This document shows positions 1 to 64,000 of a DNA stretch of 64,000 nucleotides, piece after piece; within the stretch, counting starts at the first letter, position 1, and the number at the start of each line of letters is the position of its first letter. The notes below the pieces were generated by a model that had not been told where the DNA came from, did no database searches, and was given only the letters and a program-made list of their open reading frames with translations. The translations under genes were made by a program, and so were the position numbers. This DNA is from an uncultured bacterium (GTDB taxonomy: Bacteria > Patescibacteriota > Gracilibacteria > BD1-5 > UBA2023), in contig CAIVSN010000116.1 of assembly GCA_903908595.1 (NCBI GenBank), positions 454 to 64,453 of the forward strand, written 5' to 3'.

Positions 1-1416
1 GTCGGCGGAGTCATCCGATTCAACGGCGAAATCAGCAACGGGATCAAGCTGTTCAGCCAAAGCATGTTTTCCCATACGAACTTTTTTTGCATGTCGGAAA
101 ACCTGACCGTCGGAGCGGAAGACTACGCGTGAGTCATTTGCCTGGACTACGCGGAGAAAAACGACGACGAATTCTACTACGTCGCCAAGGAAATCGATTT
201 CGACTACCTCGCGCATATCCTCGAATTCGATTACATCGAAGAAATCTATCGGAATCTCAAAAAGAAAACCGGCACGGCCAAACGCGAAATCTCTTTTGTT
301 CAAAAATTCTGAGAATACGTAACGGTTCGGGAATCGAACCCCGAAGGGCCGGACGGGAAACGGCCCTCGTTCGAAAAGATACTGGAACTCACGGAAGAAA
401 AATCCGAAATCCCTGACGAAAATGCCGGAAACCCACCCCCGTCGGATCCGGAAATCGAAAACGAAATCAACGCCTTCATGTCCATGAAATCGAGGCATTT
501 CTACGGGAAGATACCGGACAAAAACGTTACGGTCGCAGGGCATATCACCGATAAGGAATTCAAGAAATATTTCGGCTACCTCAAAGAATTCATCCTGCTC
601 GGAATCCTCCGGAATTGCCAGGAGAAATACGGGAAACCCTACGACGTCATCGGCGCCGTATCCACCGGCATCGCCCCATGGGAAGAGCAAACCACCTGAG
701 GCGATATCTATTTTTGTTCCGAATTCGTCACGGAATCGCTCCTGTTTGCCGGATTTTATCCGTTCGACTTCCAGACGAAGACTCCCAAGGCGGTGACCCC
801 GGGGGATATCATGGACATGAGCATTATTTTCAAACGGACCATGGACGGAAACGGAAAGGAATCGGACGCGGTGCTGTACGCGCACCCGAAGCAGGGGGAG
901 TTCGTGCCGGAAAACCTCGCTGACGGCGTATCGGTCAAATCCCACATTATCAACAAAGAACGTGGAAACCCCGAATTCCAAAGGCAGAAAATGCTGATCA
1001 GCGCGTTCAAGGGGATATTGGGCTACAATTTTTCCGCGGACGGGTATACCAGCAAGCCCGTTGCCGAAGAAAAGGCTCCGGCAAATCCCGCACGGTATCC
1101 GGTAAAAAGCACGGCGATGGCCTGAGGGTTCGTCCTGCTTGGAATGCTTGGCGGGTTCATCCTTTCTGGAATGACCGTGCTGAAAGCGAGCGTCGGGGAA
1201 TCCGGCGAAACGTATCCGGGAGGCATCTCGAATCCGAACCTCGGGATGGCATGGGACTTCCTTGCCTGAACGATACTGATATCCCTCGAAATCATCTTCG
1301 CCATTTGCTTGGCTTGGGTACTTTTCACGGCCATCATCCCGAATGCGAAGGCACATTCGCATAGGTGGAAGAGTTGGATCGAATGATGGTATAACGGTAT
1401 TAAATCCCGATTTTAG
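1..1416 (+). CDS. Hypothetical membrane-anchored protein, 5'-truncated by the window edge. Possibly contains a permuted papain/NlpC-P60-like domain.
   Basis: Frame-1 track ORFs 478-699 and 793-1125 join the upstream and downstream frame-1 sequence across in-frame TGAs. The first TAA/TAG in frame is TAG 1414-1416. The C-terminus has two hydrophobic helices (GFVLLGMLGGFILSGMTVL, ILISLEIIFAICLAWVLFTAII). The 'YFCSEFVTESLLFAGF' segment resembles YiiX/C92-type Cys motifs (weak). Confidence 0.6.
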
Positions 1417-1621
1417 AAGCGGGTTTGAGGATTGTTTTTCGGAGGTTGCTTAGAGGCTAGCCGAGAATCGTCTTTGTATCGTCCCACTCAAATCCGACCA
1501 GATTGGGCCTTTTGGAAAGTCATAATCGAAATGCCTAGTTTTGGATAGGGGGCGTCAAGTCCAAACCCAGTTTTTTTATTCGGAAAATACGCTATACTGT
1601 ACACCCCCTAAACCGTCGAAC

Positions 1622-1873
1622 ATGAAATACGGAATCATTCTCCTCTTGGTCGTCCTCGACGGATTTATCATACGCCATTTTTTCCCGAACTTGCGATGGG
1701 GGGAAATCGGGAAGGTATTCAGCAACGACGTTACCGGATTCAACACGGTCCTAGCCATATTTTTCTTGCTCCTGCTCTTGTCGCCTTGGGGAAACAACCC
1801 CTGGGTACTGGGGTGTTCCATAGCGGCGGCGATATGGCTCGCGGTCATGTTGCTGGCGGTGAACAGCTGGTAG
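1622..1873 (+). CDS. Small integral membrane protein (83 aa)
   Basis: Taken from track ORF 1541-1873, starting at the internal ATG 1622 (MKYGIILLLVVLDGFII...). It has three hydrophobic segments and ends in TAG. Confidence 0.5.
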   Translation: MKYGIILLLVVLDGFIIRHFFPNLRWGEIGKVFSNDVTGFNTVLAIFFLLLLLSPWGNNPWVLGCSIAAAIWLAVMLLAVNSW

Positions 1874-1909
1874 AAAACCGGAAATATAAATAGGTTCCAA
1901 AAACCGCAC

Positions 1910-2419
1910 ATGGCCCGGCTTTCATTCTTCCCTATGTCCGACAACGTCTATTACCTCTCCCCGCGTTCCAGGCTCGACGATGTCGACCGGGATATGGTCG
2001 AGCTCGAAATCGCGTCCCTCGCGTCCCACCGCCAACTGGAATCTTCCCGAGAGCGGGTCGGAAAAATCATCGGGGCGGACTATATGTTCGCGCTGCTCGA
2101 ATACCTTTTTTCCGGAAAACCCGCGTTTCCGAAGGGATTCGACCCCACGGGCACGCCCTTCCCCTACCCGTACCGGCACCATCTCGACCTGATGGAGGGA
2201 CGGGAATTGGAAATTTTTTCCCGGACGATTTCCATGATTATGAAAAGGGCCTACGATCGTTCGGGCCGTTCGAGGAAGGAATTGTTCTTTTTGCGAACGG
2301 AAGTGATGCGGCGGCTCGCGATATTCCGGGGCGAGGATTCCGGAAATACCGAAAGGCCGGAATTCGTGGGAGAACCGGGGAAGGGAGGTCCATCGGGACT
2401 CCGTATCGTACATACCTAA
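1910..2419 (+). CDS. Hypothetical protein (169 aa)
   Basis: Track ORF with an ATG start, a TAA stop and non-repetitive composition. No family recognised. Confidence 0.5.
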   Translation: MARLSFFPMSDNVYYLSPRSRLDDVDRDMVELEIASLASHRQLESSRERVGKIIGADYMFALLEYLFSGKPAFPKGFDPTGTPFPYPYRHHLDLMEGRELEIFSRTISMIMKRAYDRSGRSRKELFFLRTEVMRRLAIFRGEDSGNTERPEFVGEPGKGGPSGLRIVHT

Positions 2420-2466
2420 CCAAAATTGGTTTTCGGTATTTCACAGGTACAGATTTGGAATAGATT

Positions 2467-2874
2467 TTATTTTTCTTCTTTCGGGAGCTTATCGGGAATA
2501 ATTGCAGGAAGGCTTTCATTGCTTTTTTCGATAATGATGTACGCGCTTCCGATGTTTCCCGCGGCGTCTTTGGCCGTGACGACGATCGGGGTGAACTGCC
2601 CCTCGAGGGCTCTCATTCCGGCTCATTCGACGACGATGAGTTCCGGGGAAGTTTTGTCGTCCGTGACCCGGACTTGGACGTCGATGGCATCTCCCGAAAC
2701 GACCTGATCGTTCCGGTAGTTCACGAATTCGATAGTCGGAGCCGTCACGTCGGGCTTCGGTTTGGCATATTTCCGGACGGACGTATACCGGTTGTCGGCG
2801 GAGATTTCGGACATTCACCAAAAGCAGAGCCCGGTCACCAACGCTATCGACACGAGTATGTTGAAATTTCTCAT
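2467..2874 (-). CDS. Small secreted/anchored protein (135 aa)
   Basis: Track ORF 2623-2814 extends across TGA 2815-2817 up to ATG 2872-2874 (MRNFNILVSIALVTGLCFW, signal-like). It also extends across TGA 2623-2625 down to TAA 2467-2469. The start lies 3 nt after the upstream gene's stop. The last ~11 codons lie inside a family-B repeat fragment. Confidence 0.55.
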
Positions 2875-2877
2875 ACG

Positions 2878-4269
2878 TTAGAATTTTTCGTGGTAAATAT
2901 GCTCGAATCCCCGGGATTTGAGCGCTTTGACGCTCGATTCCACCAATTGCGGATTCCCGCAGACATAGAACTCGCAACCCTCGGGGAAATCCAATTTCGT
3001 CACGTCGATCCTCCCCGTCTCAAAACCGGCGGCGGTTTCGCGGGAGAGGTACGTGACCGTTTTGAGGTTCGGAATTTTTGCGAGCCGGTCGGCATAGAAG
3101 CGGCTTTCGGAATCCCGCACGCCGAAGAGGAGGATCTTTTCGGTTTCCGGAATATGCGACATCATATTGACGATTGGCGCGAGCCCGGTGCCGGTAGCGA
3201 TGAACGCCTTCTTGGAATCGGTAGGCCGCAGGACGAAAGAACCGGAGACGTTTTCGATTCGCAGCGTATCCCCGACTTTCAATTTTTTCAGCGCGTTGCC
3301 TCCTCTCCCTTCGGAAATCCTAATGCAGAAGGTCAGCTTCGACCGATCGGAATCCACGACGGAATACGGGCGGACGAACGTGCCGTCCCGATCCGAGAGC
3401 ACCACCCGGGCGTATTGTCACGGGATGACCACGAACGGCGTGGCCGTTTCCACCACGAGTTCCATGGTCGTGGAATTCAGCATGGCAATCTGCCGCACCG
3501 GAGCGTCTACCGGCTCCCGGTCGTCGGCCGGCTCGGAAACGGGCACGAAATCCCTTTTGGATACCCCGCAGACCGGGCACGCCCAATCGTCCGGGATGTC
3601 CTCGAACTTCGTCCCCGGCGCGATGCCGCCGTCCGGATCCCCGAGTCGTTCGTCGTAGACGTACCCGCATGGCACGCAGAGGTATTTGGTAACGGGTTTT
3701 CCCAATGGGTTCGCTTGCCCCTTCCGGGAAGCGTCCTTGCGGAAAAATGCCACGGTCCGGAAAAATATCACGGCGCCGATAATCGCCATATACCATTCGT
3801 CGAACCTCGAAGCGAAGGCGATATGGAGCGCCGCCATGAGGAAGAGCGGGTACGCGAGGGTTTGGATTTTTTTCCAAAAACCTTTCAGCAACCGCACGGA
3901 AACATCGTTGGAAGTGACGCCGAGCAGGAAAATTATCACAAATGCCACCGTCCCCGAAGCAACGTCCAGTTCCAAGAAATGTTCCAGGACGAAGAAGGTT
4001 TTCTGGTATGCGTATTCCGCGTAGAAATATACCGCCATATGCCCGATCGCGAGCAAAAAGGCAAAAATCCCGAACGTTCTCCGATACGGCGCCCAACCGG
4101 GGCGTTCGGTCAGGGCGATGATCGGGGTGACCGACATCGCGAGGGCGAGATACAGGAAAGAAACCCTCCCAAAATCCCGAAGCAGCAGGTTCGCGGTTCA
4201 TGGGTTCATCGCGTAGAACGTGACAAAAAGGACGGCTCCGGGAACAAGGGAAAGCAGGTATCGGGTCAT
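2878..4269 (-). CDS. Fusion protein: ferric-reductase-like transmembrane domain + rubredoxin + FNR-type FAD/NAD(P)-binding oxidoreductase (NOX/FRE-like architecture)
   Basis: Same-frame track ORFs 3418-4137 and 2878-3405 are joined by TGA 3418-3420, and extend upstream across TGA 4198-4200 to ATG 4267-4269. TM part: [11 protein letters not shown]...LHIAF. Rubredoxin knuckles: CVPCGYVY...WACPVCG. FNR motifs: RPYSV, GTGLAP, CGNP. Ends in TAA. Confidence 0.8.
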
Positions 4270-4305
4270 GGAAAAAAATGAGGTCGGTTACCGTATTATG
4301 ATGCT

Positions 4306-4400
4306 GAGGTTTGCCTTGGGAAGTCAGTTTACTTTCGAGGCAGAGGTTTGCCTTCCTTGGAAGTCAACTCGCCTTCTAGTCTGAGGCTTGCTTGGAAACG
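4306..4400. repeat. Three imperfect direct repeats, GAGG(T/C)TTGC..TTGG(G)AA, in the intergenic region upstream of the ferric-reductase fusion gene
   Basis: gaggtttgccttgggaagtca (4306-4326), gaggtttgccttccttggaagtca (4343-4366) and gaggcttgcttggaaacg (4384-4400), spaced roughly 37-41 nt apart. Confidence 0.5.
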
Positions 4401-5384: not shown

Positions 5385-5446
5385 AAAATGATTGAAATAA
5401 CGGGATGCAACGGATGAAATTATACGAATGGAATCCTAATAGAAAA

Positions 5447-6361
5447 TTAATACGCGACGGTTTCCGGAAAATCGAGATCGTATTTTTCCCAGAGTCACCG
5501 GGTGTAGAGCAATTCCCCGATAGAAGTGAAAATGAACCCCTCCATGCCGTTTTGCTCGATTATCCGCAGTCACTCCGATACCGGCGCGTTGAATACGCTC
5601 TTGGTGAAGCCGTCGCACTTGGCGCAATCCGGAGATATGAGCGTGACGCTGACGATCGAATTTTCATTTTCCGAAGTTTTCGGATTGACGATGTGGTGCC
5701 GCTTTTTCCGTCCGATTTCCCAGTTGCGCTTGTAGCTTCACGAGGTCGCGATCGCCGAATCCCGAAGCACCAGGGAGGTGAAGATTTCTTGGGTGAACGG
5801 ATTCTCGATGCCGATGACCCATCCCCTGTCCAGGCTCCCGTTCGTCCCGCTCGCGTAGATATCCCCGCCCGCATTCACAAAAAAATCGTCATAGCCGTAC
5901 ATCCGGAGCATGTCGCTGGCCCGGTCGACGGCCCAGCCCTTGGCGATGCCGCCAAAATCCAACGACTGCCCAGGTTCGAGCGTCACCGTATCCCCTTCGG
6001 TTTTCACGGCATGGAAATCGGTATTCACCGACCCGTTGACCGTGACGAAATTCCCTTCCTCGAAAGAATGGCCGTACCCGAGCTTGGCGACGGAAACGAG
6101 CGGATTGAAGAACCCGTCCGTCAGCCGGTACATGTTTTTGGAGACGCTCAGGAGTTCCAAAAACCGCTTGGAAACGGTCGCTTTCTTATGGGCGTTGAGC
6201 AGGCTCAGCGCGGAGTCCTCCCGGAACCGTGAAAATTCCGCCTCGACCGAAACGAAAAAATCGAAAACGGCGGCGATTCGCCCATCGGTAAGCGGATCTT
6301 CGGAAATGACGGCGATTTCTATTTCCGTCCCCAAGAGTTTTCTCGTTTCGGAATATCTCAT
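5447..6361 (-). CDS. apbE: FAD:protein FMN transferase (ApbE family)
   Basis: This is the C-terminal part of track ORF 5738-6724, starting at ATG 6359-6361 (MRYSETRKLLGTEIEIAV...). It reads through TGA 5738, 5570 and 5495 to TAA 5447-5449. ApbE-like blocks: FNPLV, DFGGIAKGWAVD, NAGGDIY, 'AIATS[TGA]SY' (canonical ATSG), 'HHIVNPKT'. No signal peptide is seen. Confidence 0.85.
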
Positions 6362-6424
6362 ATGACAAAAAATAATTCGGGGCGATTGTACGGAGACGAT
6401 ATTAAGGAAGCCTTCGGAAATGAA

Positions 6425-6450
6425 AAAGAAGCGCTCGTAAGCGCTTCTTT
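6425..6450 (-). terminator. Intrinsic terminator after the 6591-7508 gene
   Basis: Perfect 11-bp stem aaagaagcgct/agcgcttcttt with loop cgta, followed by a T-run on the minus strand. Confidence 0.6.
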
Positions 6451-6590
6451 CAAATGTCGAATGCCCTGGCGTTCCAGCGAACGAACCGGTTGAAAATATT
6501 TCCAAACGGATATTCGCGGATAACGGCCTCGTGCGATTCTTTGGTTCGTAGCGGGAAATGCCTGGGCATTCCCGGTTCCGACTTCGCTTC

Positions 6591-7508: not shown

Positions 7509-7574
7509 GGTACCGTTCGGAAATAATGCCCCCGAACCTATGGCGAATTGGATTATTGGTGATTTTAGAAAATA

Positions 7575-7595
7575 GTCAAGCGGAAATGCCTTGAC
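7575..7595 (-). terminator. Possible terminator hairpin after the pilin-like gene
   Basis: gtcaag-N9-cttgac stem, followed on the minus strand by tattttct. Confidence 0.35.
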
Positions 7596-17738: not shown

Positions 17739-18179
17739 CTATTTCGCCAAACCCTCCGAATGCCGCTTGAAATTCTCCAAGATGGCGCTCCAGCCCGCGA
17801 TCTGCATTTCGTGGGAATGGACGTCTTCCGCGTCGAAAATCTCCGTAACCCGTATCCCGTCGGGCGTTTCTTCGAAAACGACTTCCACTTCCCGGCCGGC
17901 CGGGAGGAAATATTCCTTCATCTCGCCCATCGTGTAGGAGACGCGTTTCATCGGCTCCACCAGGTCGTACCGGGCGGTGAAATCGAAGGAAGCGCTCCCG
18001 TCTTTCGCGGCGAACGTATTGCAAAACACGACGCCGACCCCGGGTTCGGGAGAGTCGGATTTCGGGCAGTGCCAATCGTCCGAGGCGAAGCACCAGCGGA
18101 CGATGTGTTCGCTCTTCCAGAAAGCGTCCCAAACGGTGGGAAGCGGAGCGTGCACCAGGGTAGATACGGTAAGTTTCAT
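17739..18179 (-). CDS. SRPBCC/AHSA1 (START-like) domain protein
   Basis: Intact 146-aa track ORF. MKLTVSTLVHAPLPTVWDAFW...GWSAILENFKRH is typical of Aha1/BPI-like SRPBCC proteins. Ends in TAG. Confidence 0.7.
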   Translation of the reverse strand: MKLTVSTLVHAPLPTVWDAFWKSEHIVRWCFASDDWHCPKSDSPEPGVGVVFCNTFAAKDGSASFDFTARYDLVEPMKRVSYTMGEMKEYFLPAGREVEVVFEETPDGIRVTEIFDAEDVHSHEMQIAGWSAILENFKRHSEGLAK

Positions 18180-18260
18180 AGGGAAAAAATAGGTGATGGA
18201 GCGTCGTTGTATTTTTTACGGAAGAAGCGAACCGGCGGATTGCCAATGGATTGGAGGCGA

Positions 18261-18605
18261 TTATTTTTTCTCTGCCGACGTTTCCCCGAAAATCATAGTA
18301 ACGATAGCGAGGACAATGGCAAATACGGCGGCTGACAAAAATCCGTCCAATACGAATCCCGGTACGATTTTTGCGACCAGCATCACCATGAGCACGTTGA
18401 TAACAAGGGAAACGAGCCCGAGCGTCAGGAGGTTCAGGGGAAGCGTCAGCAGCTTCAAAACAGGCGTGATGGTGGCGTTGACCACGGCGAGGACGACCGC
18501 GACGATAATCGCCGTCACGTACCCGTCCACGTGGGATCACGGGGTGAAATAGGAAGCGATGGCGATTGCCAGCGCGGAAATCAGAAGGTTCAAGATGATG
18601 GCCAT
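18261..18605 (-). CDS. Phage holin family IV / DUF360-type small membrane protein
   Basis: Track ORF 18261-18530 is joined across TGA 18537-18539 to ATG 18603-18605. MAIILNLLISALAIAIASYFTP[G]SHVDGYVTAIIVAVVLAVVNATITPVLKLLTLPLNLLTLGL matches the family, with the TGA falling on the conserved PG. Ends in TAA. Confidence 0.75.
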
Positions 18606-18778
18606 ATGGGGAAAATTAGGAATACGGCCTGACATTATACGCGTATGTGCGGGAATGGGTAAAGATAAGCCGGGGGGCGGGGGGATTTCATGATTTGATA
18701 TCATCAAATATAGCAAATACGGGAAAATTCCATACACTTCGCTTATGAATGGATTGTATTTTTTAAATTTTATAAGAT

Positions 18779-37204: not shown

Positions 37205-37438
37205 ATGGCCACAATTACCATTGTGAAAAAAGGTTCCGGGATCCGCGTCCGTGCAATCACGACCGGTGGGTACGGCAGCCAAGAAGGTTACACCGACAGC
37301 AAAGGCATGGTACGATTCAACGACAGTGCCAATAGGACTCAGATTCAGGTCTGGAGTCCGGGCGGCTCGCGTTGGGTCAATACCGGCGACGTGCTTTCCT
37401 CATTACGGGGAGATCACGACTGCTACATGCCCTTCTGA
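37205..37438 (+). CDS. Small hypothetical protein (77 aa) with standard-code hallmarks. It ends in TGA.
   Basis: AGGAG 37194-37198 lies 6 nt before ATG 37205. The ORF closes with TGA 37436-37438, and an intrinsic terminator follows 8 nt later. Under code 25 the frame would stay open to TAA 37841-37843. Confidence 0.45.
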   Translation: MATITIVKKGSGIRVRAITTGGYGSQEGYTDSKGMVRFNDSANRTQIQVWSPGGSRWVNTGDVLSSLRGDHDCYMPF

Positions 37439-37445
37439 AGGATTA

Positions 37446-37474
37446 CGGCCCCCGTTATGCGGGGGCCGGTTTTT
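37446..37474 (+). terminator. Intrinsic terminator
   Basis: cggcccccg-ttatg-cgggggccg, followed by gttttt. Confidence 0.75.
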
Positions 37475-41300: not shown

Positions 41301-43466
41301 TTAAATGACGATAATAATTCTTTCGAGCCCCACCCTCCCCTTCTCCTTGTCCACGTTGATGATCTTGACGTTCACTTCCTCCCCGACGCTCACGTATTTG
41401 GAAATGTCTTCCACCCGTTCCTTGACCCCGAGTTTCGAGATGTGCATCATGCCGGACTTCCCTTTCGACCATTCGACGATGGCGCCGACCCCGTCGAGGA
41501 TCTTGACGACTTTGCCGTGCAGCACGTCGCCGACCTCGTCGTCTTTGAGAATGCCCTTGATGCGTTCCAAGGCGGCCTTTCCGCTCGCCTGGTCCTTCGC
41601 GGTAACGGAACATTGCCCGTTGTCTTCGAGATTGACTTCGACGCCGAATTCCTTCTCGATGCCCTGGATGGTTTCCCCGCCCTTCCCGATGACTTCCCGC
41701 ATTTTCTCTTCCGGTACGAACACGCTGAGGATGAACGGCGCGAACGGCGAAAGTTCCGACCGGGGAGCCGCGAGCGCCTGGGCCATGCTTGCCCGTATTT
41801 CTTTCAGGGCCGCGACGGATTGCGCGAACACTTGGTCGATTACGCCGAGTTCCAATCCGGAAATCTTGCAGTCCATCTGCAGCGCGGTGATGCCGTTTTC
41901 GGTAGAAGCGACCTTGAAGTCCAGATCCCCGAGGAAATCCTCCTGGGCCTGGATGTCCGAGAGCACCACGTATTCGCGGGTCTTCTCGTCGAAAATCATT
42001 CCCATGGCGACCCCGGCGACCGCCCGTTTGATCGGCACCCCCGCGTCCATCAGGGAAAGCGTGGATCCGCAAACGGAAGCCATGGAAGACGATCCGTTGC
42101 ACGTGAGCGTTTCGGAAACCACCCGGATGAAGTACGGGAATTCCTCAAGCGACGGGAGCACGGGTTCGAGCGCTTTTTCCGCGAGCCGGCCATGTCCGAC
42201 TTCCCGCCGTCCCACGCCTCGCAGCGGTTTGACTTCGCCGACGCTGTACGGGGGAAAATTATAATGGTGGATGTACCGCTTGGTATTTTCTTCGAACATG
42301 TCGTCGACGATCTGGATGTCGCCCGGACCGCCGAGGGTCGTCACCGAAAGCACCTGCGTCACCCCCCGCTCGAACAATCCGGAACCGTGGGTCCTCGGAA
42401 GGATGCCGACGGCAGACCGGAGCGGACGCACCTGGTCGGGTTTCCGTCCGTCGAGTCGGACTTTTTGCCCGAGGACCGAAGCCCGCATGTGGGTTTTGAC
42501 CATGGAATATACCGCTTCGGAAACGGCTCCGGCGTCGATGGCGTTTTCTTCGGCATCGGCCTTGTAGCCGAGATCCGAGAGCACGGATAATTCCAATTCC
42601 TTCAACCGGTCGTAAAATTCCGTTTTTCCGGTGCGGAACAACGGCTTGGTGCGTTCCGCGGTAACGAGGATCGCCACCCGGTCGTGGAGGATTTCGTCAT
42701 CCTCCTTGAGCGTGAGCTCGATGACCGGAAGCGCGTACGACTTCTGGTATTCCGTCAGGAAATCCAATTGCGCCTGACAGATTTCCCGGACGATTCCGTG
42801 CGCGAAGGCGAACGCCCGCGACATGGTCGCTTCGTCGACTTCCTGGGCCTGCGACTCCACCATGGTAATGGCGTCGAGCGTTCCGGCGATCGTGAGGTCG
42901 AGTTTCGCCGCCGCGATTTGCGCGAAGGTCGGATCAAAGACGAACTTCCCTTCCGCGTCCATCGCGATGCGGACGCCCGCTACCGGCCCTTCGAAATCGC
43001 CGACTCCCGCGAGCATGAGCGAGAGCGAGGCTCCCGTGATTCCCCAGAATCCGAAATCGGAAGTTCCGCCGGAACTCATGATGGTGGAAATGATCTGCAC
43101 GTCGTTCTGCACGCCCTTCGGGAACATCGGACGGATCGGCCGGTCGATGAGCCGGGAGGTGAGAACCGCCGTTTCGGAAGGCCGTCCTTCGCGCTTCATG
43201 AAGCGGTTGCCGCCGATTTTACCGGTCGCGTAGTACCGTTCGACGAATTCCACCGTGAGCGGGAAAAAACTCGCGGCCTTGGGTTCGGGATTGATGCCCG
43301 AGGTCGTGAGGAGATAGTTGCCGAGCGTATCTTGGATGACAATCGCGCCCTGGGCGAGCCGCGCCATACGGCCGGATTCGAAGGTTACCGGCTTGCCGGC
43401 GATATCAAAAGTCTTGGAAACGGGAAGTTTGCCCATCACGTTCTGATCGGAGAGTCCGGGAATCAT
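41301..43466 (-). CDS. pnp: Polyribonucleotide nucleotidyltransferase (PNPase)
   Basis: Intact 721-aa track ORF with two RNase PH domains, a KH domain (REVIGKGGETIQGI) and an S1 domain (GKVVKILDGVGAIVEW). No in-frame TGA. Ends in TAA. Confidence 0.95.
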   Translation of the reverse strand: MIPGLSDQNVMGKLPVSKTFDIAGKPVTFESGRMARLAQGAIVIQDTLGNYLLTTSGINPEPKAASFFPLTVEFVERYYATGKIGGNRFMKREGRPSETAVLTSRLIDRPIRPMFPKGVQNDVQIISTIMSSGGTSDFGFWGITGASLSLMLAGVGDFEGPVAGVRIAMDAEGKFVFDPTFAQIAAAKLDLTIAGTLDAITMVESQAQEVDEATMSRAFAFAHGIVREICQAQLDFLTEYQKSYALPVIELTLKEDDEILHDRVAILVTAERTKPLFRTGKTEFYDRLKELELSVLSDLGYKADAEENAIDAGAVSEAVYSMVKTHMRASVLGQKVRLDGRKPDQVRPLRSAVGILPRTHGSGLFERGVTQVLSVTTLGGPGDIQIVDDMFEENTKRYIHHYNFPPYSVGEVKPLRGVGRREVGHGRLAEKALEPVLPSLEEFPYFIRVVSETLTCNGSSSMASVCGSTLSLMDAGVPIKRAVAGVAMGMIFDEKTREYVVLSDIQAQEDFLGDLDFKVASTENGITALQMDCKISGLELGVIDQVFAQSVAALKEIRASMAQALAAPRSELSPFAPFILSVFVPEEKMREVIGKGGETIQGIEKEFGVEVNLEDNGQCSVTAKDQASGKAALERIKGILKDDEVGDVLHGKVVKILDGVGAIVEWSKGKSGMMHISKLGVKERVEDISKYVSVGEEVNVKIINVDKEKGRVGLERIIIVI

Positions 43467-47134: not shown

Positions 47135-47485
47135 GTGGAAATACAAATATACCTGATTGGCTTCGATCTCTGGCTTCTCGTCCTCACGACCCTGCTCGGA
47201 ATGACGGTAAGCACGATCGGATATGTGAAACGTTTGCCGAACGGGAAACGGTTCGATATCGTCAAAGCATGGAAAACGTCAATCATTGCCACAATGTTGC
47301 TATTGTGGGGATTGATCATCGCGCTCATGGTCTGGTTTTCTTACGAACCGGAATCGTTCGGCAAGTTTTTCTACTATCCCATCCAACTCTTCTCTGCCGG
47401 AATCGTCGGCGAAACGTTGGCGCTCGGGTTGTCCTGGATTCTCAAAGGGCATCGCAATTCCCTTCTGAATCTCGGGAAAACCTGA
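47135..47485 (+). CDS. Small membrane protein (116 aa) with standard-code hallmarks. It ends in TGA.
   Basis: AGGAG 47124-47128 lies 6 nt before GTG 47135. It has about four hydrophobic helices. The ORF closes with TGA 47483-47485, and an intrinsic terminator follows at 47520. Under code 25 the frame stays open to TAA 48992-48994. Confidence 0.5.
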   Translation: MEIQIYLIGFDLWLLVLTTLLGMTVSTIGYVKRLPNGKRFDIVKAWKTSIIATMLLLWGLIIALMVWFSYEPESFGKFFYYPIQLFSAGIVGETLALGLSWILKGHRNSLLNLGKT

Positions 47486-47519
47486 AATCTTCCCCGGGAA
47501 ACCCCCGTGGAAACCCCCA

Positions 47520-47551
47520 ATCCCGGAACGGCGACGTTCCGGGATTTTTCT
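47520..47551 (+). terminator. Intrinsic terminator
   Basis: aatcccggaacg-gcga-cgttccgggatt, followed by ttt. Confidence 0.75.
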
Positions 47552-47624
47552 GAATCGGGAATCCCGGGATTCCATTTTTTGAAAATCCCCGTACAATGCC
47601 TGCCAATCCTAATCATAACCCATT

Positions 47625-48437
47625 ATGAACACGCCACCATTTTCCCTCGCGCTCGGCGGATGAGCCGCCCGGGGACTCGCCCATGTCGGAATCATACGGT
47701 ATCTCGAAGAACACGGGCTCCGCGCGGAAGAAGTCTCCGGAACGAGCATGGGATCCATCATCGCGGCGCTCTACGCCTATTGAAAGACGTCCGAAGAAAT
47801 GCGGAATATCTGTGCCGATATCAAGTTCGTCAAGCTGATCGATCTCGATCTCAAGAAATGACTCCTCAAGGGGAACAAGATCGAAAAGCTTCTCGAATCC
47901 ATATTCTGAAACGCGAAGATCGAGGATTTGAAAATGCCCTTGAAAATCGTTTCCGCCAATATCGACACCGGAGAAAAACGCGTTTTCGAAACAGGTCCGG
48001 TCGTCGACGCCATCCGTTCTTCCATCAGCATTCCCGGAATCATCATGCCGAACGAACTCGGCCTCGAACGGCTGGTTGACGGGGGCATCGTCAACAATCT
48101 CCCCGTGGAAATCCTCAGGGGCAAAAACGTCATCGCCGTTTCGGTCTTACGGGACGTCTCCCGTCCAATCGACATGAAACTCAAAGTCCTCGGGTTCGAG
48201 ATGAACCAATCCATTTTCTGAATCGGGTATCAGATCTTGCAGAAAACCATCGACATCATGGTAAACCAGAACGAAAAAAGGTCGTTGGAATCGGAAAAGC
48301 ATATCGTCCTGCTCGAACCGAAATTCCCGGGAATCGATTATTACGAATTCCAGAAGTACGACGAAATCATCGGCATCGGATACGCTACGGCCATGAACGC
48401 CGGGCTGATTGGCCGATTATCCGAAAAATTCGAATAA
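47625..48437 (+). CDS. Patatin-like phospholipase
   Basis: ATG 47625. Frame-0 track ORFs 47928-48221 and 48237-48437 are joined with upstream sequence across 5 TGAs. Motifs: LALGG[TGA]AARG (GGGxRG), GTSMGS (GxSxG), DGGIVNNLP (DGG). Ends in TAA. Confidence 0.85.
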
Positions 48438-48449
48438 TCCAAATCGAAC

Positions 48450-49007
48450 ATGCCACTGGAAACCATCGTCGCGTTCGATCGATACTGCATCCTTTCGGTA
48501 TCCGCGTTCCAAAGCCCCTGGCTCGACCCCGGCATGATTGCCCTTACCAAAGTCGGGGATATGGGAGCGGTATGGCTGATCGGTACCGCCACCCTGCTCC
48601 TCTGGCAGAAATACCGGTACGAAGGAGCCGTTATTTTTTCCGGACTGGCATTGAATACGGTCCTCGGGGAATGAATATTGAAGCACGTTTTTCAAAGGGA
48701 TCGCCCATTTCTCGATCTGCACGAAGTCGCGCTCAAGATTCCGGCTCCGATTACTTCGTCGTTTCCGTCGGGACACACGAGTGCTTCGTGGTGTTTTGCC
48801 CTGCTGTTCACGGTATTTTTTTGGAAACGTTCGAGATCCGCCGTCATCCTCGTCTGGACGTTGGCAATCGGCATCGCGTTTTCCAGGTTTTACCTCCAGG
48901 TACACTATCCGAGCGATATTCTGTGAGGAATGGCTATCGGTACGGCCAGTTCGATTGCGGTAATCTACATTTTTGGAAAAATCGACGCCAGTAAAAAACT
49001 CCCCTAA
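48450..49007 (+). CDS. PAP2 superfamily phosphatase (BcrC/undecaprenyl-diphosphatase-like)
   Basis: Frame-0 track ORFs 48450-48674 and 48678-48926 are joined by TGA 48672 and 48924. Motifs: KHVFQRDRP, PSGHT, SRFYLQVHYPSDIL[TGA]G. Ends in TAA 49005-49007. Confidence 0.8.
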
Positions 49008-52638: not shown

Positions 52639-54387
52639 CTACCGGAATTTCACGGAAAAATCCTTCGGATCGCGATCGTATGGAAGTTCGGTACACTTCG
52701 TCGACGAAGAAGAGATTTCGCACGAGACGCCCAACCCCGGAAGCGTCTCCGGGAAGGGCTGGTCGAAGATGAAGTTGCCGAGCGAATAGTAAATCGGGAC
52801 CCCCCGGTAGATTTCCGAATCGGCCATGACGTGCGGATGGTGTCCGATGATGAGCCGGGCTCCCGCGTCGACGAACCGGTACGCGAGTTTTTGCTGCGCT
52901 TCCGTATGGGACGCGGAATACTCTACCCCCCAGTGCAGCGAAACGATGGGCACGTACCCCGAAAACGACAACGTTTGGACAGCTTCGACCTTTTTGTCCC
53001 AATCGTTCGTGATGTCGATGGCGTTCAGTCCGACGAACGCGTACTTCGTCCCGCGGATTTCGGTCTTGAAAATTTCGGATTCGGTCTTCCTGCCGTCGCC
53101 GAAGTACGCGAGGCCCGCTTTCGCGAGGTCGTCTTTAGCGGCAATATAGGACGCGGTTCCGCAATCGTACGCGTGGTTGTTCGCGAGATCGACCGTGTCG
53201 ATGCCGATCGATCGGAGGATGGAGAGGTTCGCCGGCGGCATGATGATGCGGACGGATTTCTTGGACGGCAGGCACCCCTCCTTCGTGGAAACCGCGGTTT
53301 CGAGATTGGCAATGACCCGGTCGAACCCGGAAAGCGGGCGGTGATACCCCGTGTCGAGCGGGATTCCGATGTCCCCCTTTTCATAGAAGGAGGCCAGCGA
53401 GCGGGCGATGGCGCCGGAAGACGCGGCCTCGCGCATTTGGAATCCGCGCCCCAGGTGCGTATCCCCGAAAAACGCGAAAAACGCGGGGGATTCCCGACGG
53501 ACCGCCGGGTCGGCAGGCGCGAAAAATCCGTAAACGTGGCTCGTGTTCCCCGTGAAACTCCGGGTCTGGAATACCGTATCGACGCTGGTCCTCGCCACAA
53601 TGGAAAAATCGGTCAGCCCCGCCTTCGTCGCGACGCTTTTGGCCACGGCGAGGCAGTTCCGGCAATCGACCTCGGCCTTCGCGAATTCGTCCGTGCTCCC
53701 GTTCCGGAGGATTTCCACGGAAAGCGAATCGTGGAGCTTGGCGAAAGGTTCGTCGGTATTGTGGGAAAAATCCACCGAGGCCAGGACGAGCACGTTCCCG
53801 GGAAGTCGGGCAATCGCCGAAGCGAAGCGCTCGCTTTCTTCTCCCGGTTTCAGTTCGCGGCGGAGGACGACCGGCATGATTTTCGCGTCGGGAAAATGCT
53901 TGGAAACGAAATCGAAATGCTCCCCGAGCCCGTGCTCTCGGGTTTCCCCGTTCTCCGTAAACAGCGGGAACGTCGATGGGATATCCACGAATCCCGGGAA
54001 GGGCACGGCCGAGACGTGGCGGTCCTTGAAAAATATATCCCGTTCCGATCCGACGGATTCGAGCGGCTGTTTGCCAGCCCCGAAATGGTTCGGCGAAACG
54101 ATGACGACCGTCGAGGGGATTCCGTATTTTACCGCCAGGAGCTCATAGAACCCATCCACCCGGGCCCGGTCGACCATATGGTGCGGCAACACGGCGACAT
54201 GGATGCCCGGAACGGGAACGGAATCGGTCGGCAATCCCGCCATGGAACCCGGATGGGCCGGCAGGATTTCCCAAGGGGCCATCAAAATCCGGTACGACCA
54301 AATCCCCCCGTAGAGCAATACGAAGACGAGAAAGGCGCCGAACACCGAATACGGACGCAGCCGGAACGAAATATTGGGGAGCTTCAT
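52639..54387 (-). CDS. Fusion of a Memo/AmmeMemoRadiSam-B-like domain with a CapA-family metallophosphatase; N-terminal TM anchor
   Basis: Track ORF 52639-54432, starting at ATG 54385-54387 (MKLPNISFRL...), which overlaps the upstream stop as TAATG. The CapA part has LANNHAYDCG, HWGVEY and IIGHHPHV. The N-terminal part has VLPHHMV...VIVSPNHFG. No in-frame TGA. Ends in TAG. Confidence 0.7.
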   Translation of the reverse strand: MKLPNISFRLRPYSVFGAFLVFVLLYGGIWSYRILMAPWEILPAHPGSMAGLPTDSVPVPGIHVAVLPHHMVDRARVDGFYELLAVKYGIPSTVVIVSPNHFGAGKQPLESVGSERDIFFKDRHVSAVPFPGFVDIPSTFPLFTENGETREHGLGEHFDFVSKHFPDAKIMPVVLRRELKPGEESERFASAIARLPGNVLVLASVDFSHNTDEPFAKLHDSLSVEILRNGSTDEFAKAEVDCRNCLAVAKSVATKAGLTDFSIVARTSVDTVFQTRSFTGNTSHVYGFFAPADPAVRRESPAFFAFFGDTHLGRGFQMREAASSGAIARSLASFYEKGDIGIPLDTGYHRPLSGFDRVIANLETAVSTKEGCLPSKKSVRIIMPPANLSILRSIGIDTVDLANNHAYDCGTASYIAAKDDLAKAGLAYFGDGRKTESEIFKTEIRGTKYAFVGLNAIDITNDWDKKVEAVQTLSFSGYVPIVSLHWGVEYSASHTEAQQKLAYRFVDAGARLIIGHHPHVMADSEIYRGVPIYYSLGNFIFDQPFPETLPGLGVSCEISSSSTKCTELPYDRDPKDFSVKFR

Positions 54388-56401: not shown

Positions 56402-56441
56402 AAAAAACGAAACATTCCCCGGCATTGTCCGGGGAATGTTC
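56402..56441 (-). terminator. Intrinsic terminator after the 56467-57468 gene
   Basis: 12-bp stem aacattccccgg / ccggggaatgtt, followed on the minus strand by tcgtttttt. Confidence 0.65.
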
Positions 56442-56466
56442 ATAGAAAATCCGAAGCGGGTACCTA

Positions 56467-57468: not shown

Positions 57469-57473
57469 ATGCG

Positions 57474-57803: not shown

Positions 57804-57904
57804 GGAAAAATTCTTTTAAGAAGATGCTTCCCGGCAACTCTACCATATACGAAAGGATATTGCAAAATTTGCCATCGACGAATTTTTGCCCTGGTTTCCG
57901 GAAT

Positions 57905-59803: not shown

Positions 59804-59838
59804 CGAAAAATTCGAACCGCGGAAGAAAAATCGGAAAC

Positions 59839-60873
59839 CTAGTAGCTCTCGGGGGTCAGCCGTGCCAATGCCATGTATCTCCGGAGCTTTTTCAACCCCG
59901 TCTTCTCGATTTGCCGGATACGCGAAGAAGTCAGATCCATGACTTTGGCAATTTCTTCCAAAGTGTATTCCTGCGGGATTCAGAAAAGCCCGAACCTCAT
60001 GGAAATGACGGCCTTTTCCCGTCTCGTCAGCCCGGCGATCACGCCGTCCTTCGCCGTGTCGAAAATCGACAGCACCTTTTCGGAAACGTTTTTGCGGAGC
60101 AGGCGCTCGTACGGTTCGCAATCGCTGGACGCGGGAATGAGATCGTGGAGATCCGTGTCTTCGTTATCCGTTCATACGGGGCGGTCGAACGACGAGAGGT
60201 GCCGCATCTGGGTGAGTTCCCTCAGCATCCATACGCGGTCGCGGTCGATATCGAATTCGTCGCTGATTTCCCGTTCCGTGGGCATTTTCCCGTTTTGCCG
60301 TTCATATGCGGCAACGTAGGCGCCGTATTTTCACAGCTCGGACATGATTTGTACGGGATACCGGATTTCCGTGCCCATTTCCCAGATGGCGCGTACGATC
60401 GTCTGGCGTATCCACCAAGTGGCATACGTCGAAAACCGGAATCCGAGTTCCGGATCGAATTTTTCGACGGCCCGCATGAGTCAAATATTCCCCTCCTGGA
60501 TCAGGTCGGACATTTCCAACCCCCGGTTGGGATATTTTCTGGCAATGGAAAATACCAGCCGTACGTTCGAGGCTACCATCCGATCGCGAGCGGCGATATC
60601 CCCAGCCCTGGCAGCACGGGAAAGCGTGACTTCTTCCGCGGCGGTGAGGAGGTCGTTTTTTCGGGAATCCCGCATCAGGAAGGCTACGGAGTCCTGCGTT
60701 GAAAACACTTCCTTTTCGACGCAGGTCGTGCCGGTATCGGAATTTGCGAAGTCCGGGACGGAGAATGCCGCCTTGGCGACGGTTGCAAGAAAATCGGAAA
60801 CTTCGGCCCTTTCGGGAGCGAGGATTTCCATCGCCTCGGATACTTCGGCCGAGTCCGGATCCTTGATGTTCAT
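59839..60873 (-). CDS. rpoD: RNA polymerase sigma-70 family factor, RpoD-like (regions 2-4)
   Basis: Track ORF 60481-60873 continues across TGA 60481, 60331, 60172 and 59980 to TAG 59839-59841. Blocks: SDLIQEGNI[TGA][32 protein letters not shown], then [16 protein letters not shown][TGA][33 protein letters not shown]. Confidence 0.9.
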
Positions 60874-60907
60874 ATCGGGAGATTGAGGTAGTGGAGATGA
60901 AAAATAG

Positions 60908-60935
60908 AAAATACCTATAAATATATAAAAGTCAA
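60908..60935 (-). promoter_or_regulatory. Candidate promoter of the sigma factor gene (TTGACT-N16-TATTTT)
   Basis: Minus-strand -35 at 60935-60930 and -10 at 60913-60908, about 35 nt upstream of ATG 60873. Confidence 0.35.
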
Positions 60936-61053
60936 TAACCGGTGGTACCGACGGTCGTCTCCATTTTGGCTTGACAAACTGGAAATGCGATTTTTAATGC
61001 GTTTCCCAATGGGAAAATGAGATACGACGGCCGATGGAACGGACGGGAAACCC

Positions 61054-61082
61054 AAAAAAAACCTCCCCGGTTTCCGGAGAGG
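61054..61082 (-). terminator. Intrinsic terminator after efp
   Basis: Minus strand reads cctctccgg-aaa-ccggggagg, followed by tttttttt. Confidence 0.7.
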
Positions 61083-61103
61083 AGTTCGCGAGATGCCCCG
61101 TGG

Positions 61104-61667
61104 CTATTTCGCCCGTTCCTGGTATTCTCCGGTTTCCGTGTTGATAATGAGGTATTCCCCGTTGTTCACGAATCCTGGAACCCGCATTTCGAGTCCGGTT
61201 TCGAGCTTGACCAGCTTGTCGACCTTGCCGTCGGCCGTATTCCCCGCAACCGCGGGATCCGCCTCGATGACCTTGAGCTTGACCCGTTGCGGGAGCATGG
61301 CCCCGATGAACCGGCCCTCGTAGCTCTGGATGTCCACGATGAGGCCTTCCGTCATGTAATTGACGGCGTCCCCGATGTCGTCGACCGTGAGTTCGATCTG
61401 TTCGAAAGTATCCTGGTTCATGAACGCGTACGATCCCGCCGACTCGTAGAGGAATTCGAATTTTACGCGTTCCAGCGTGATGTCTTCCATCTTTTCTTCG
61501 CTGTCGAACATCTTGTCCACGGAGTTCCCCTGGAGCAGGTTCTTGAGACGGAGCTTGATATTGGTAGCCCCGCGCCCGCCCCGGTGGAGTTCGAACTTGA
61601 GGACCAGGAGGATGTCTCCCCCGATTTTGACGACCGTACCAACACGGCATTGCATTGCGAATTTCAT
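61104..61667 (-). CDS. efp: Translation elongation factor P
   Basis: Intact 187-aa track ORF with EF-P-wide similarity (VGTVVKIGGDILLVLKFELHRGGRGATNIKLRLKNLLQG...VEADPAVAGNTA). Ends in TAG. Confidence 0.9.
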   Translation of the reverse strand: MKFAMQCRVGTVVKIGGDILLVLKFELHRGGRGATNIKLRLKNLLQGNSVDKMFDSEEKMEDITLERVKFEFLYESAGSYAFMNQDTFEQIELTVDDIGDAVNYMTEGLIVDIQSYEGRFIGAMLPQRVKLKVIEADPAVAGNTADGKVDKLVKLETGLEMRVPGFVNNGEYLIINTETGEYQERAK

Positions 61668-61704
61668 AAAAAAAAGTTAGTTCTTGCTGTTTTTGGAAAT
61701 GATT

Positions 61705-61790
61705 TGGTGCCCAGAATGAGACTCGAACTCACAAGGGATTGCTCCCACAGGCTTCTGAGACCTGCGTGTCTACCATTCCACCACCTGGGC
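61705..61790 (-). tRNA. tRNA-Leu (anticodon CAG), class II with a long variable arm, CCA encoded
   Basis: Minus strand reads GCCCAGGTGGTGGAATGGTAGACACGCAGGTCTCAGAAGCCTGTGGGAGCAATCCCTTGTGAGTTCGAGTCTCATTCTGGGCACCA. The anticodon loop is CTCAGAA. Confidence 0.9.
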
Positions 61791-61923
61791 CAATGCTACG
61801 AATAGCGGCAATCTTTCCAAAAAACGTGCAGATAGTAAGCAAAAGCTAAAAAGAAGCAAGTTTTGACATTTTTAATTCTTTATGTATCGTTTGAAAGTGC
61901 AACTATCCGTAACCTTTTCGCGC

Positions 61924-62268
61924 ATGAAAACCGATATCGCATCCGGGCATTTCGCTCCGGAAACCCCGGAAAATTCCGATCCCCTTCTGCTCGCGGCTCC
62001 CCTCAAAACCACGGAATACGCCGGCACGGTCGCGGCGACCGTCGGAGCGCTCCTCCTGTCCGGATGCGTCGTAATAGCGGAACGGCCGAGTTACGACCAT
62101 TACCCGTCCCGGCACTACGAACCGGTACGAGAACGGCATTACAAAGAACGCCGCCGGATCATCGTCGTGGAACGCCCGGTCATCGTGGAACGAAAAATCA
62201 TCGTCGTGGCCCCGAAACATAAGAAGGACAACGACCGCCACCACCGAGATCACGACCGGAAAAACTAA
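61924..62268 (+). CDS. Small basic putative lipoprotein
   Basis: Taken from track ORF 61882-62268, starting at the internal ATG 61924. Has ...VGALLLSGC, followed by an Arg/His/Lys-rich tail. Ends in TAA. Confidence 0.45.
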   Translation: MKTDIASGHFAPETPENSDPLLLAAPLKTTEYAGTVAATVGALLLSGCVVIAERPSYDHYPSRHYEPVRERHYKERRRIIVVERPVIVERKIIVVAPKHKKDNDRHHRDHDRKN

Positions 62269-62351
62269 GTCTTTCGGTATTTTTTTCCAAAACCCGAAAA
62301 AATCCCCAAGATTCCCCTTTTGAGGAATGTTCATTTTGACTATAATCCTCC

Positions 62352-62471
62352 AAAATCCTGCAAAACGATGAAATCCGAAGCCTATTTCGAGCACCGTAGC
62401 GAGGCGTACTGGCAAGTACGCCGAACGAGGAGCGCAGAAATTGGCAAGGAGTTCGCGTTTTACAGAAATTT
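62352..62471. repeat. Family-A palindromic element, copy 5
   Basis: Termini aaaatcctgcaaaacg / cgttttacagaaattt. The central hairpin is cgtacT-GGCA-Agtacg. It lies just upstream of proS. Confidence 0.85.
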
Positions 62472-62498
62472 CCACAGCGTAATTTAAACCCCTATCCC

Positions 62499-63971
62499 AT
62501 GGCTATCACATCCCGCGCGACCGACTATTCCCAATGGTACCTCGACGTCGCCAAATCCGGCGACCTGTTCGAATATTCCCCGACCCCCGGCTGCATCACC
62601 TTCCTCCCCAAATCCGTGACCATGTGGACCCGCATCCAGAAGGCCATGCAGGAGAAGCTCGACCGGCTCGGCGTCCAGAACGTCTATCTCCCGATGCTCG
62701 TCCCGATGAGCTTTTTCGAGCGGGAAAAGGACCACGTGGAAGGATTCGCGCCGGAACTCGCCGTCGTCACCATCGGCGGAGGCAAAACGCTTGAGGAGCC
62801 CCTCGCCATCCGGCCGACTTCCGAGCTCCTGTTCTGCGATTTTTTCAAGGACAAGCTCCAGTCCTATCGCGACCTCCCGATGCTCTATAACCAGTGGGTA
62901 TCCGTGCTCCGATGGGAAAAACGCACCCGACCGTTCCTCCGCACCGCGGAATTCTACTGGCAGGAAGGCCACACCCTCCACGAAAACCGGCCCCAGGCGG
63001 ACGCCTTCGCGCTCGACATCCTCTGGAAGGTCTACATCGAGACGATCGAGGACGTCATGGCCATCGGCGGAATCGCCGGCCGCAAGTCTTCGAGCGAAAA
63101 ATTCGCCGGAGCCGACACCACCTATACGTTCGAGCCGATGATGAGCAACGGCTGGGCGCTCCAAATCTGCACGTCCCACCTCCTCGGACAGGGATTCATG
63201 GAAGGGTTCGGCGTGAACTACCAGGACCGGGACGGGGCACTGACCCATCCGTGGTACACTTCCTGGGGACTCTCGACCCGGTCCATCGGGGGGATCATTT
63301 CGAGCCATTCCGACGATCGCGGGCTTATAATTCCTCCGAAAATGAGCGAATTCCAAGCGGTCATCCTCCCGCTTTTCACCAAGGAAAACACCGAAGCCAT
63401 CGGGGAATACGCCCGGCAAATCGCCCGGCTCATCGTCGGGGAAACCGCGAGCGAAGTCCCGGTCCACGGAGAATATTTCCGGGCGCTCGTCGGAGCCGGC
63501 GGCAAGGTCGAGCTCGACCTCCGGGACGCGAGGCTGGGAGAGAAAATCACCGACTGGGAAATCTCCGGATACCCCATCCGCATCGAGTGCGGCGAACGCG
63601 ACCGACAAGCCGGGAAATGTGTGATCGCATCGCGGATCACCGGGGAAAAATCGATCGTCACGCTCGACGAAGTCGTGGCGACCGTGTCGAGAATGAACGA
63701 GGAAGGCCAGGCCAAACTCCTCGCGGACAGCCGTCGGAGACTGGAAGAAAACACCGTGGCCTGCTTCGGCATGGAAGACATCGGCAACGCCATCGAAGCC
63801 GGGAAGTTCGCCATCTGCGAATGGGACCAGGACCCCGAATTCGAGAAGGAAATCAAGGAAAAATTCAAGGCGACGACGCGGTGCATCCCGTTCGAGGGAC
63901 AATTCACGGATGAATTGCTGCCTTTGACCAAGGAAGGAACGGTTCGGGTCGTGGTGGCGCGGAGTTTTTAG
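62499..63971 (+). CDS. proS: Proline--tRNA ligase (archaeal/eukaryote-like type)
   Basis: Intact 490-aa track ORF. Similarity includes YLDVAKSGDLFEYSPTPGCITFLPKSV, FAPELAVVT and RPTSE...FLRTAEFYWQEGHT. No in-frame TGA. Ends in TAG. Confidence 0.9.
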   Translation: MAITSRATDYSQWYLDVAKSGDLFEYSPTPGCITFLPKSVTMWTRIQKAMQEKLDRLGVQNVYLPMLVPMSFFEREKDHVEGFAPELAVVTIGGGKTLEEPLAIRPTSELLFCDFFKDKLQSYRDLPMLYNQWVSVLRWEKRTRPFLRTAEFYWQEGHTLHENRPQADAFALDILWKVYIETIEDVMAIGGIAGRKSSSEKFAGADTTYTFEPMMSNGWALQICTSHLLGQGFMEGFGVNYQDRDGALTHPWYTSWGLSTRSIGGIISSHSDDRGLIIPPKMSEFQAVILPLFTKENTEAIGEYARQIARLIVGETASEVPVHGEYFRALVGAGGKVELDLRDARLGEKITDWEISGYPIRIECGERDRQAGKCVIASRITGEKSIVTLDEVVATVSRMNEEGQAKLLADSRRRLEENTVACFGMEDIGNAIEAGKFAICEWDQDPEFEKEIKEKFKATTRCIPFEGQFTDELLPLTKEGTVRVVVARSF

Positions 63972-64000
63972 GGCATCCTGGGCGTTTTCGGAACGAATCG

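Follow-up and report, generated by a model that had tools for sequence, protein, structure and literature searches.

The stretch of DNA analysed here, hereafter the window, comprises 64,000 nucleotides of contig CAIVSN010000116.1 (positions 454 to 64,453) from the assembly GCA_903908595.1 of an uncultured bacterium, and our subject is the meaning of the codon UGA (TGA in the DNA), which recurs inside the open reading frames (ORFs) of this contig. We conclude, at a probability of about 97%, that the window belongs to a Gracilibacteria-type genome of Patescibacteria, from the BD1-5/Absconditabacteria clade, which uses NCBI genetic code table 25, wherein UGA stands for glycine. A dedicated tRNA-Gly whose anticodon is UCA would decode UGA as glycine, release factor 2 (RF2), the reader of the UGA stop, has been lost, and release factor 1 (RF1) terminates translation at UAA and UAG. 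An earlier note on this DNA had proposed that UGA is glycine throughout the window. This applies to all genes in which a TGA could be tested, and the qualification that it needs concerns two small ORFs (37205-37438 and 47135-47485) whose apparent coding ends at a TGA.

Glycine columns and the sense-codon behavior of TGA

All six of the TGA codons that were originally singled out as occupying conserved glycines are in frame at the positions originally given, with the one in the ApbE gene lying on the minus strand, and the fused frames that contain them do give full-length homologues, in that Pfam domains run across the TGAs. The domain is covered completely or nearly so in the ApbE gene (ApbE, 1-264/266), the patatin-like gene (Patatin, 1-190/191), the RhuM gene (Virulence_RhuM, E = 2.5e-102, 18-248/252) and the holin superfamily IV gene (Phage_holin_4_2, 3-105/105), and in the sigma-70 factor the Sigma70 r1.2, r2, r3 and r4 domains are matched across the TGAs, as are the PAP2 domain, the three PAS domains with GGDEF and a RimK-like ATP-grasp domain in their respective genes (Table 1). 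At five of the six sites the conserved glycine is confirmed: In the sigma-70 factor (60481-83), EGNxLM, where x marks the TGA, stands opposite the EGNLGL of RpoS/RpoD structures, with the TGA on the Gly column; in the patatin-like protein (47661-63), GGxAARG stands opposite SGGAARG, and in ApbE (5738-40), ATSxSY opposite ATSGDY, in both cases again on a Gly column; in the PAP2 phosphatase (48924-26), the column has Gly in 89/120 homologues, and in the holin-like protein (18537-39), in 132/150 representatives. The sixth site, RhuM 12364-66, falls on a column where Gly is a mere plurality (51 G, 44 N and 19 D of 120 homologues).

The remaining sites extend this picture across eight genes of the window, in all of which every TGA was masked as X before alignment to avoid bias. 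The four TGAs of the sigma-70 factor correspond to G, N, G and G in RpoS structures, and those of the patatin-like protein to G, G, G and D in PlpD (5fqu), with one further site unaligned. In ApbE, both X199 and X255 are G in the solved structures of this family. The other TGA of the PAP2 gene lies on a column with Gly in 79/120 homologues, and the other three of the RhuM gene on columns dominated by G (105/120), G (114/120) and K (87/120). The five TGAs of the PAS-PAS-PAS-GGDEF protein match G, G, R, L and G in PAS structures. In the RimK/cyanophycin-synthetase-like ATP-grasp protein, 59 distant standard-code homologues have G at X152 in 44 and at X232 in 45, with the other five sites being variable; in its close relatives, all seven TGA sites are occupied by G or “W”. 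In the ferric reductase fusion, a gene outside these eight, Pfam domains flank the second TGA on either side. Altogether, Gly is found at 19 of the 29 alignable TGA sites of the eight genes and Trp at none (binomial P = 1.5e-15 against a Gly background of 7.1%); the columns occupied by TGA are Gly columns, and neither Trp columns nor gaps.

The same assignment emerges at the scale of the whole assembly, which amounts to 2.41 Mb (2,408,911 bp) in 186 contigs with 51.5% GC. In-frame TGAs occur in 1112 of the 1645 called genes (68%), about 3957 in total, at a frequency of 6.4 per 1000 codons or about 8% of the Gly codons. With 26 of the 41 coding sequences of the window requiring read-through, the earlier estimate of about two thirds holds, on crude gene calls, for both the window and the genome. 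As reference we took 63 loci that use the standard code and were retrieved from around rpoB, given that rpoC has no TGA and rpoB has one near its N-terminus, and aligned X-masked proteins to their ORFs. This yielded 54 TGA sites, of which 29 (53.7%) have Gly as the majority residue and 0 have Trp, as against Gly columns for 59.1% of the GGN codons of the genome itself and for 7.1% in the background (binomial P = 1.4e-19). Among 20 models, the one with Gly leads by 47 ln units. All 61 sense codons, including CGA and CGG as Arg, keep their standard meaning in the same tabulation. When the TGAs of this genome are compared with 17 recoded relatives (75 sites), the opposite codon is GGN at 46 sites (GGA at 31), TGA at 6 and TGG at 0; conversely, the TGAs of the 17 relatives (684 sites) stand opposite a GGN of this genome at 508. 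TGA is a minor glycine codon that arises mostly by change between GGA and TGA.

Its behavior with respect to termination was likewise assessed genome-wide. Coding potential over the 40 codons past a TGA has a median of +7.0, compared with 7.1 for AGA, 6.3 for TCA and 7.4-8.5 for GGN. A terminator, in the form of a hairpin and a T-run, follows 0/2097 TGAs in well-scoring frames; the corresponding values are 1.4-1.8% after TAA and TAG and 0.3-1.8 per 1000 after those sense codons that have any hit, with TCA having none. A strict scan of 218 terminators found TGA upstream to be no more enriched than control sense codons. At orthologous gene ends (39 + 39), the codon opposite TAA or TAG is TAA, TAG or a sense codon, and it is TGA in 0/39 and 0/39. 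TGA behaves as a sense codon genome-wide. The earlier note also argued that the fused coding sequences, apart from two small ORFs, all end in TAA or TAG; since code 25 itself guarantees this outcome, it does not constitute independent evidence. For annotation, both the window and the genome need table 25: if table 11 is applied, some two thirds of all genes are broken into fragments, and under table 4 Trp is placed where Gly belongs.

Decoding machinery and placement among recoded lineages

The genome has, as anticipated by the earlier note, a tRNA with the anticodon UCA and glycine identity elements. It is the only one with this anticodon and is encoded at contig C142:29555-29633. With a length of 79 nt, this tRNA has the discriminator U73, an encoded CCA and an acceptor stem of 7 bp (GCGGGGG/CCCCCGC); its acceptor elements G1:C72, C2:G71, G3:C70, U73 and CCA are those of tRNA-Gly(GCC) and tRNA-Gly(UCC), of which the former is 14 nt from tRNA(UCA). 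It conforms to the Gly-identity rule of Shulgina and Eddy (PMC8629427). Across the genus, family and order, it is present as a single copy with 84-100% identity in 41/41 genomes sampled, and 12 inspected copies all have the same anticodon loop. As a separate observation, ARAGORN reported just 33 tRNAs in this genome and none for Ala, Asp or Val; either tRNA loci are missing from the assembly or some of the tRNAs are atypical.

ARAGORN gives tRNA(UCA) the label “SeC”, which would be in keeping with a standard-code genome whose in-frame TGAs are selenocysteine codons, sites of programmed read-through, pseudogene lesions or assembly errors. We give this possibility hardly any credence: the approximately 3957 in-frame TGAs affect 68% of the genes and fall on Gly rather than Cys/Sec columns, all relatives display the same pattern, and RF2 is absent. 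Moreover, tRNA(UCA) measures 79 nt, its acceptor stem has 7 bp and its variable arm is short, as opposed to the long variable arm and the 8/5 acceptor/T stems of a selenocysteine tRNA, and it matches the tRNA model of Rfam and not that of tRNA-Sec (selA and selB were not searched).

With regard to the release factors, prfA is present and prfB is absent, in line with what had been expected for this code. There is one gene with an RF-1 domain, which is a prfA equivalog (460 bits versus a 400-bit cut-off) with the P-x-T motif; a tblastn search of the genome with the RF1 protein returned the self-match only and no paralogue, and the prfB model recovered only a cross-hit to RF1 at 268.7 bits, under its cut-off of 370. 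As a positive control, the same model detects a true prfB above the cut-off in 38 of 40 further genomes from the phylum, two of which belong to the same class. An RF-1-domain gene was found in 39/40 relatives from the order, with 37 having just one and two a second weak partial hit, and these genes often have in-frame TGAs inside them, up to six.

The phylogenetic position of the genome agrees with its code. The nearest RpoB sequences come from metagenome-assembled genomes (MAGs) labelled Candidatus Gracilibacteria, Peribacteria or Patescibacteria group, and at all 17 nearest loci long ORFs are gained only with TGA as a sense codon. In a maximum-likelihood tree of RpoB, the genome lies deep within a clade with 100/100 support that contains exactly 18 TGA-sense genomes (itself included), with a MAG whose RpoB is 94% identical as its sister. 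The placement in Gracilibacteria/Absconditabacteria that was originally drawn from the codon alone is, accordingly, upheld by a tree in which the recoded neighbors bear the above labels.

Table 25 is known as the code of SR1/Absconditabacteria as well as Gracilibacteria (Campbell et al. 2013, Rinke et al. 2013; summarised in PMC13695967, PMC8629427) and has been placed in Absconditabacterales and BD1-5, i.e., the GTDB class JAEDAM01 (PMC13695967, PMC8629427). The present genome shares with this group UGA as Gly, the tRNA-Gly(UCA) with G1:C72, C2:G71, G3:C70 and U73, the loss of RF2 with retention of RF1, UAA and UAG as stops, and a position inside TGA-recoded Gracilibacteria-type MAGs. The code being identical, what distinguishes the genome is its GC content of 51.5%, at the GC-rich end of the 21-53% range of the table 25 group (PMC8629427), and its size of 2.41 Mb, about twice that of all the listed relatives. 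The mechanism of the UGA-to-Gly change here is the one that is already known, namely tRNA-Gly(UCA) together with RF2 loss; the reassignment is textbook for the clade and brings no new principle. Codon-capture arguments link UGA reassignment with low GC content, and to these a clean GC-rich case such as the present one is mildly relevant.

An extended code of Absconditabacteria is also known, in which the UGA-to-Gly change is accompanied by that of CGA/CGG to Trp (Shulgina and Eddy 2021, PMC8629427). Our genome has the UGA-to-Gly reassignment and its machinery in common with this code, but it differs in that Arg is the majority residue at 77/171 CGA and 267/626 CGG sites, and in that CGG is common, at 20.8 per 1000 codons. 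Since CGA and CGG fall on Arg columns, the extra reassignment of Absconditabacteria is absent here.

Table 4, wherein UGA means Trp, is used by Mycoplasmatales, Hodgkinia, Zinderia, Nasuia, Stammera and some Eggerthellaceae. It too is a stop-to-sense reassignment of UGA with RF2 loss, so that this loss and the in-frame TGAs would fit UGA as tryptophan just as well as they fit table 25, and some database homologues do carry a “W” at TGA columns. However, Trp-majority columns account for 0/29 of the sites in the window and 0/54 of those genome-wide, and in relatives TGA is never opposite TGG. The amino acid here is Gly, and so is the identity of the decoding tRNA: the tRNA-Trp has the anticodon CCA, and U73 with the G1-C2-G3 acceptor marks the UCA tRNA as a Gly rather than a Trp acceptor. 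As for the “W” residues, they are confined to close relatives, in columns where other relatives have G, and are most likely the result of translating code-25 genomes with table 4 in public protein sets. We regard a tryptophan reading as exceedingly improbable, and the exclusion of code 4 in the earlier note stands.

Small ORFs ending on TGA

Several points weigh against UGA being glycine under table 25, or at least against its being so everywhere. In distant homologues, 10 of the 29 window TGA sites have a residue other than Gly, though such a fraction is expected because the GGN glycines of the genome themselves match Gly at only 59%. The assembly is a MAG in 186 contigs, and the absence of prfB therefore rests on an estimated completeness of 98.65% and on the same absence in relatives. 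The genome-wide gene counts come from our own crude codon-usage caller instead of a trained gene finder. That GlyRS charges tRNA(UCA) and that glycine is inserted at UGA is what we infer. Finally, given the two small ORFs that end on TGA, UGA may not be an ordinary Gly codon at every site. One of these, ORF 37205-37438, belongs to a family whose conserved frame ends exactly on TGA in 12/12 members found, and on TAA, TAG or GGN in none.

The members of this family that were recovered number 12, in 3 genera of the order, each about 75-77 codons long and with identity down to about 40%: orthologues with 74-77% identity were found in three genomes of the same genus, and distant members in two other genera. 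The copy in the window has an AGGAG ahead of its ATG and ends in ...MPF-TGA; a GC hairpin followed by a T-run begins 8 nt past the TGA, with no in-frame TAA or TAG before the T-run. A GC hairpin and T-run of this kind lies within about 25 nt in 9 of the 11 members that were folded, with its sequence varying between genomes, and similarity between the family proteins stops at the TGA. Differences between members are dominated by the third codon position (30-38, versus 9-21 at positions 1 and 2), and ORF 37205-37438 is, therefore, a real coding gene. It has no Pfam match, and no homologues outside the order were recovered from JGI metagenome contigs or IMG/VR. A paralogue is present on the same assembly at contig C116:66032-66265, outside the window.

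The second small ORF, 47135-47485, repeats this layout: it has an AGGAG ribosome-binding site, a coding score of 14.1 and a hairpin with a T-run about 35 nt downstream of its TGA. If the TGA is read through, the code-25 frame (47135..48994) continues for about 500 codons across the patatin gene.

These features could be accommodated if UGA were generally Gly and yet, in certain contexts, also marked the functional end of the coding region in a few small ORFs. Such a second role may operate through a non-stop mRNA that ends at the terminator and is rescued by tmRNA, through an interaction between a decoding pause and the terminator, or through an RF2-independent release. In its favor are the AGGAG ribosome-binding site and real-gene substitution pattern of ORF 37205-37438, the invariable TGA end of its conserved part and those of its 11 homologues, the hairpin and T-run that recur in most of the family despite their dissimilar sequence between genomes, the repetition of the layout in ORF 47135-47485, and the presence of tmRNA in the genome (contig C148:3295-3736; detected at 69 bits by the Rfam model, with ARAGORN reporting none). 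Against it, the 218 strict terminators reveal no enrichment of TGA over control sense codons, no terminator follows any of the 2097 TGAs in well-scoring ORFs, and at the ends of orthologous genes a TAA or TAG never stands opposite a TGA. Further, no RF2, ArfB or PrfH-like gene was found in the genome, and an unconserved read-through tail might simply be tolerated; ORF 47135-47485, which is without a Pfam match, lacks homologues among 40 relatives and so may not be a gene. We consider a second role of this kind unlikely.

Since the genome-wide tests for a stop function are negative, the TGA end of the small ORFs is better seen as a family-specific oddity than as a property of the code, which in our reading remains table 25 with UGA as glycine. 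In the family itself, the TGA may be read through into a tolerated tail, give rise to a non-stop message or act in regulation. We doubt that, in a lineage lacking RF2, UGA has retained or acquired a further, selected function in ending particular small genes; were this true, it would imply tmRNA-coupled non-stop translation, a decoding pause that controls a terminator, or an RF2-free route of release. A small-gene family that always ends on the reassigned codon could matter more than the reassignment itself.

Gene content, base composition and genome size

Table 1. Coordinates of the genes and ORFs of the window discussed in the text, with their in-frame TGA codons.
Feature	Coordinates	Strand	In-frame TGA	Basis
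Ferric-reductase-TM/rubredoxin/FNR-like fusion, 463 aa	2878..4269	-	2: 4198-4200, 3418-20	
ApbE/FAD:protein FMN transferase, 295 aa	5447..6334	-	3: 5738-40, 5570-72, 5495-97	
RhuM family protein, 346 aa	12262..13302	+	4: 12364-66, 12673-75, 13117-19, 13267-69	
RimK/cyanophycin-synthetase-like ATP-grasp protein, 327 aa	14811..15794	-	7	Pfam RimK, ATP-grasp_3
Holin superfamily IV membrane protein (PF04020)	18261..18599	-	18537-39	
Giant ORF, about 4480 aa	21188..34630	+	12; open only with TGA as sense	Coding score 1117.7
Exception 1, 77-codon ORF	37205..37474	+	Conserved part ends at TGA 37436-38	Sequence
Exception 2, 116-codon membrane-protein-like ORF	47135..47551	+	TGA end 47483-85	Sequence
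Patatin-like phospholipase, 270 aa	47625..48437	+	5: 47661-63, 47781-83, 47859-61, 47907-09, 48219-21	
PAP2 phosphatase, 185 aa	48450..49007	+	2: 48672-74, 48924-26	Pfam PAP2
PAS-PAS-PAS-GGDEF diguanylate cyclase, 743 aa	50133..52364	-	5	Pfam PAS, GGDEF
Sigma-70 family factor (RpoD/RpoS-like), 344 aa	59839..60873	-	4: 60481-83, 60331-33, 60172-74, 59980-82	

The giant ORF of the window has no match in Pfam or NCBIfam. Two plus-strand ORFs were discarded as genes: ORF 5405-6523, considered as ApbE, lacks a Pfam match, the real gene being the one on the minus strand at 5447-6334; likewise, ORF 17760-18662 is arginine-rich and without a family match, with the real gene at 18261-18599 on the minus strand, and probably arises as an antisense shadow cast by the holin region. 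With TAA and TAG being rare at 51-54% GC, shadow ORFs of this kind are frequent here.

Homologues of the RhuM protein in unrelated phyla (e.g., those of Pacebacteria and Caenarcaniphilales MAGs) share up to 80% identity with it, a degree of sequence similarity that suggests horizontal transfer of the gene. As it has TGA at three Gly columns, the gene has been rewritten in the code of its host. The remaining TGA, the fourth (13267-69), is found in the variable C-terminal tail, at a column where Lys is the majority residue.

TGA is unevenly spread over the genes. It is lacking from core or long housekeeping genes, namely pnp (41301-43466; 0 in 721 codons), proS (62499-63971; 0 in 490 codons) and the gene at 52639-54345 in the window, and from that for RpoC on contig C161 (0 in 1359 codons), and accessory genes hold several. 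TGA is avoided in core genes, where the accuracy or rate of translation presumably matters.

The size of the genome stands apart from that of its relatives, 2.41 Mb being about twofold the 0.8-1.6 Mb of 40 relatives and the 0.9-1.3 Mb of members of the same genus; no other genome among 40 sampled from the phylum exceeds 2.0 Mb. A mixture of two genomes was considered as the cause and is not supported: inter-contig matches involve only 6% of the bases, only 54/1645 proteins have a paralogue at an identity of at least 70%, and the GC distribution is unimodal. Moreover, rpoB, rplB, prfA and tmRNA are single-copy, and so are the tRNA anticodons, bar CAU (tRNA-Met, two genes). Thus, we are dealing either with a real genome expansion in a lineage of the Candidate Phyla Radiation or with a binning artefact that escaped the checks made.

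The base composition has undergone a large, recent shift. In rpoB (contig C161:13932-17486), GC at third codon positions (GC3) is 0.68, compared with 0.39 in the sister MAG, despite the protein being 94% identical, and small loci from the same genus have 41-47% GC as opposed to the 51.5% seen here. Like the small-gene family, the combination of a doubled genome size with a 30-point shift in GC3 relative to the relatives could prove of greater consequence than the code itself.

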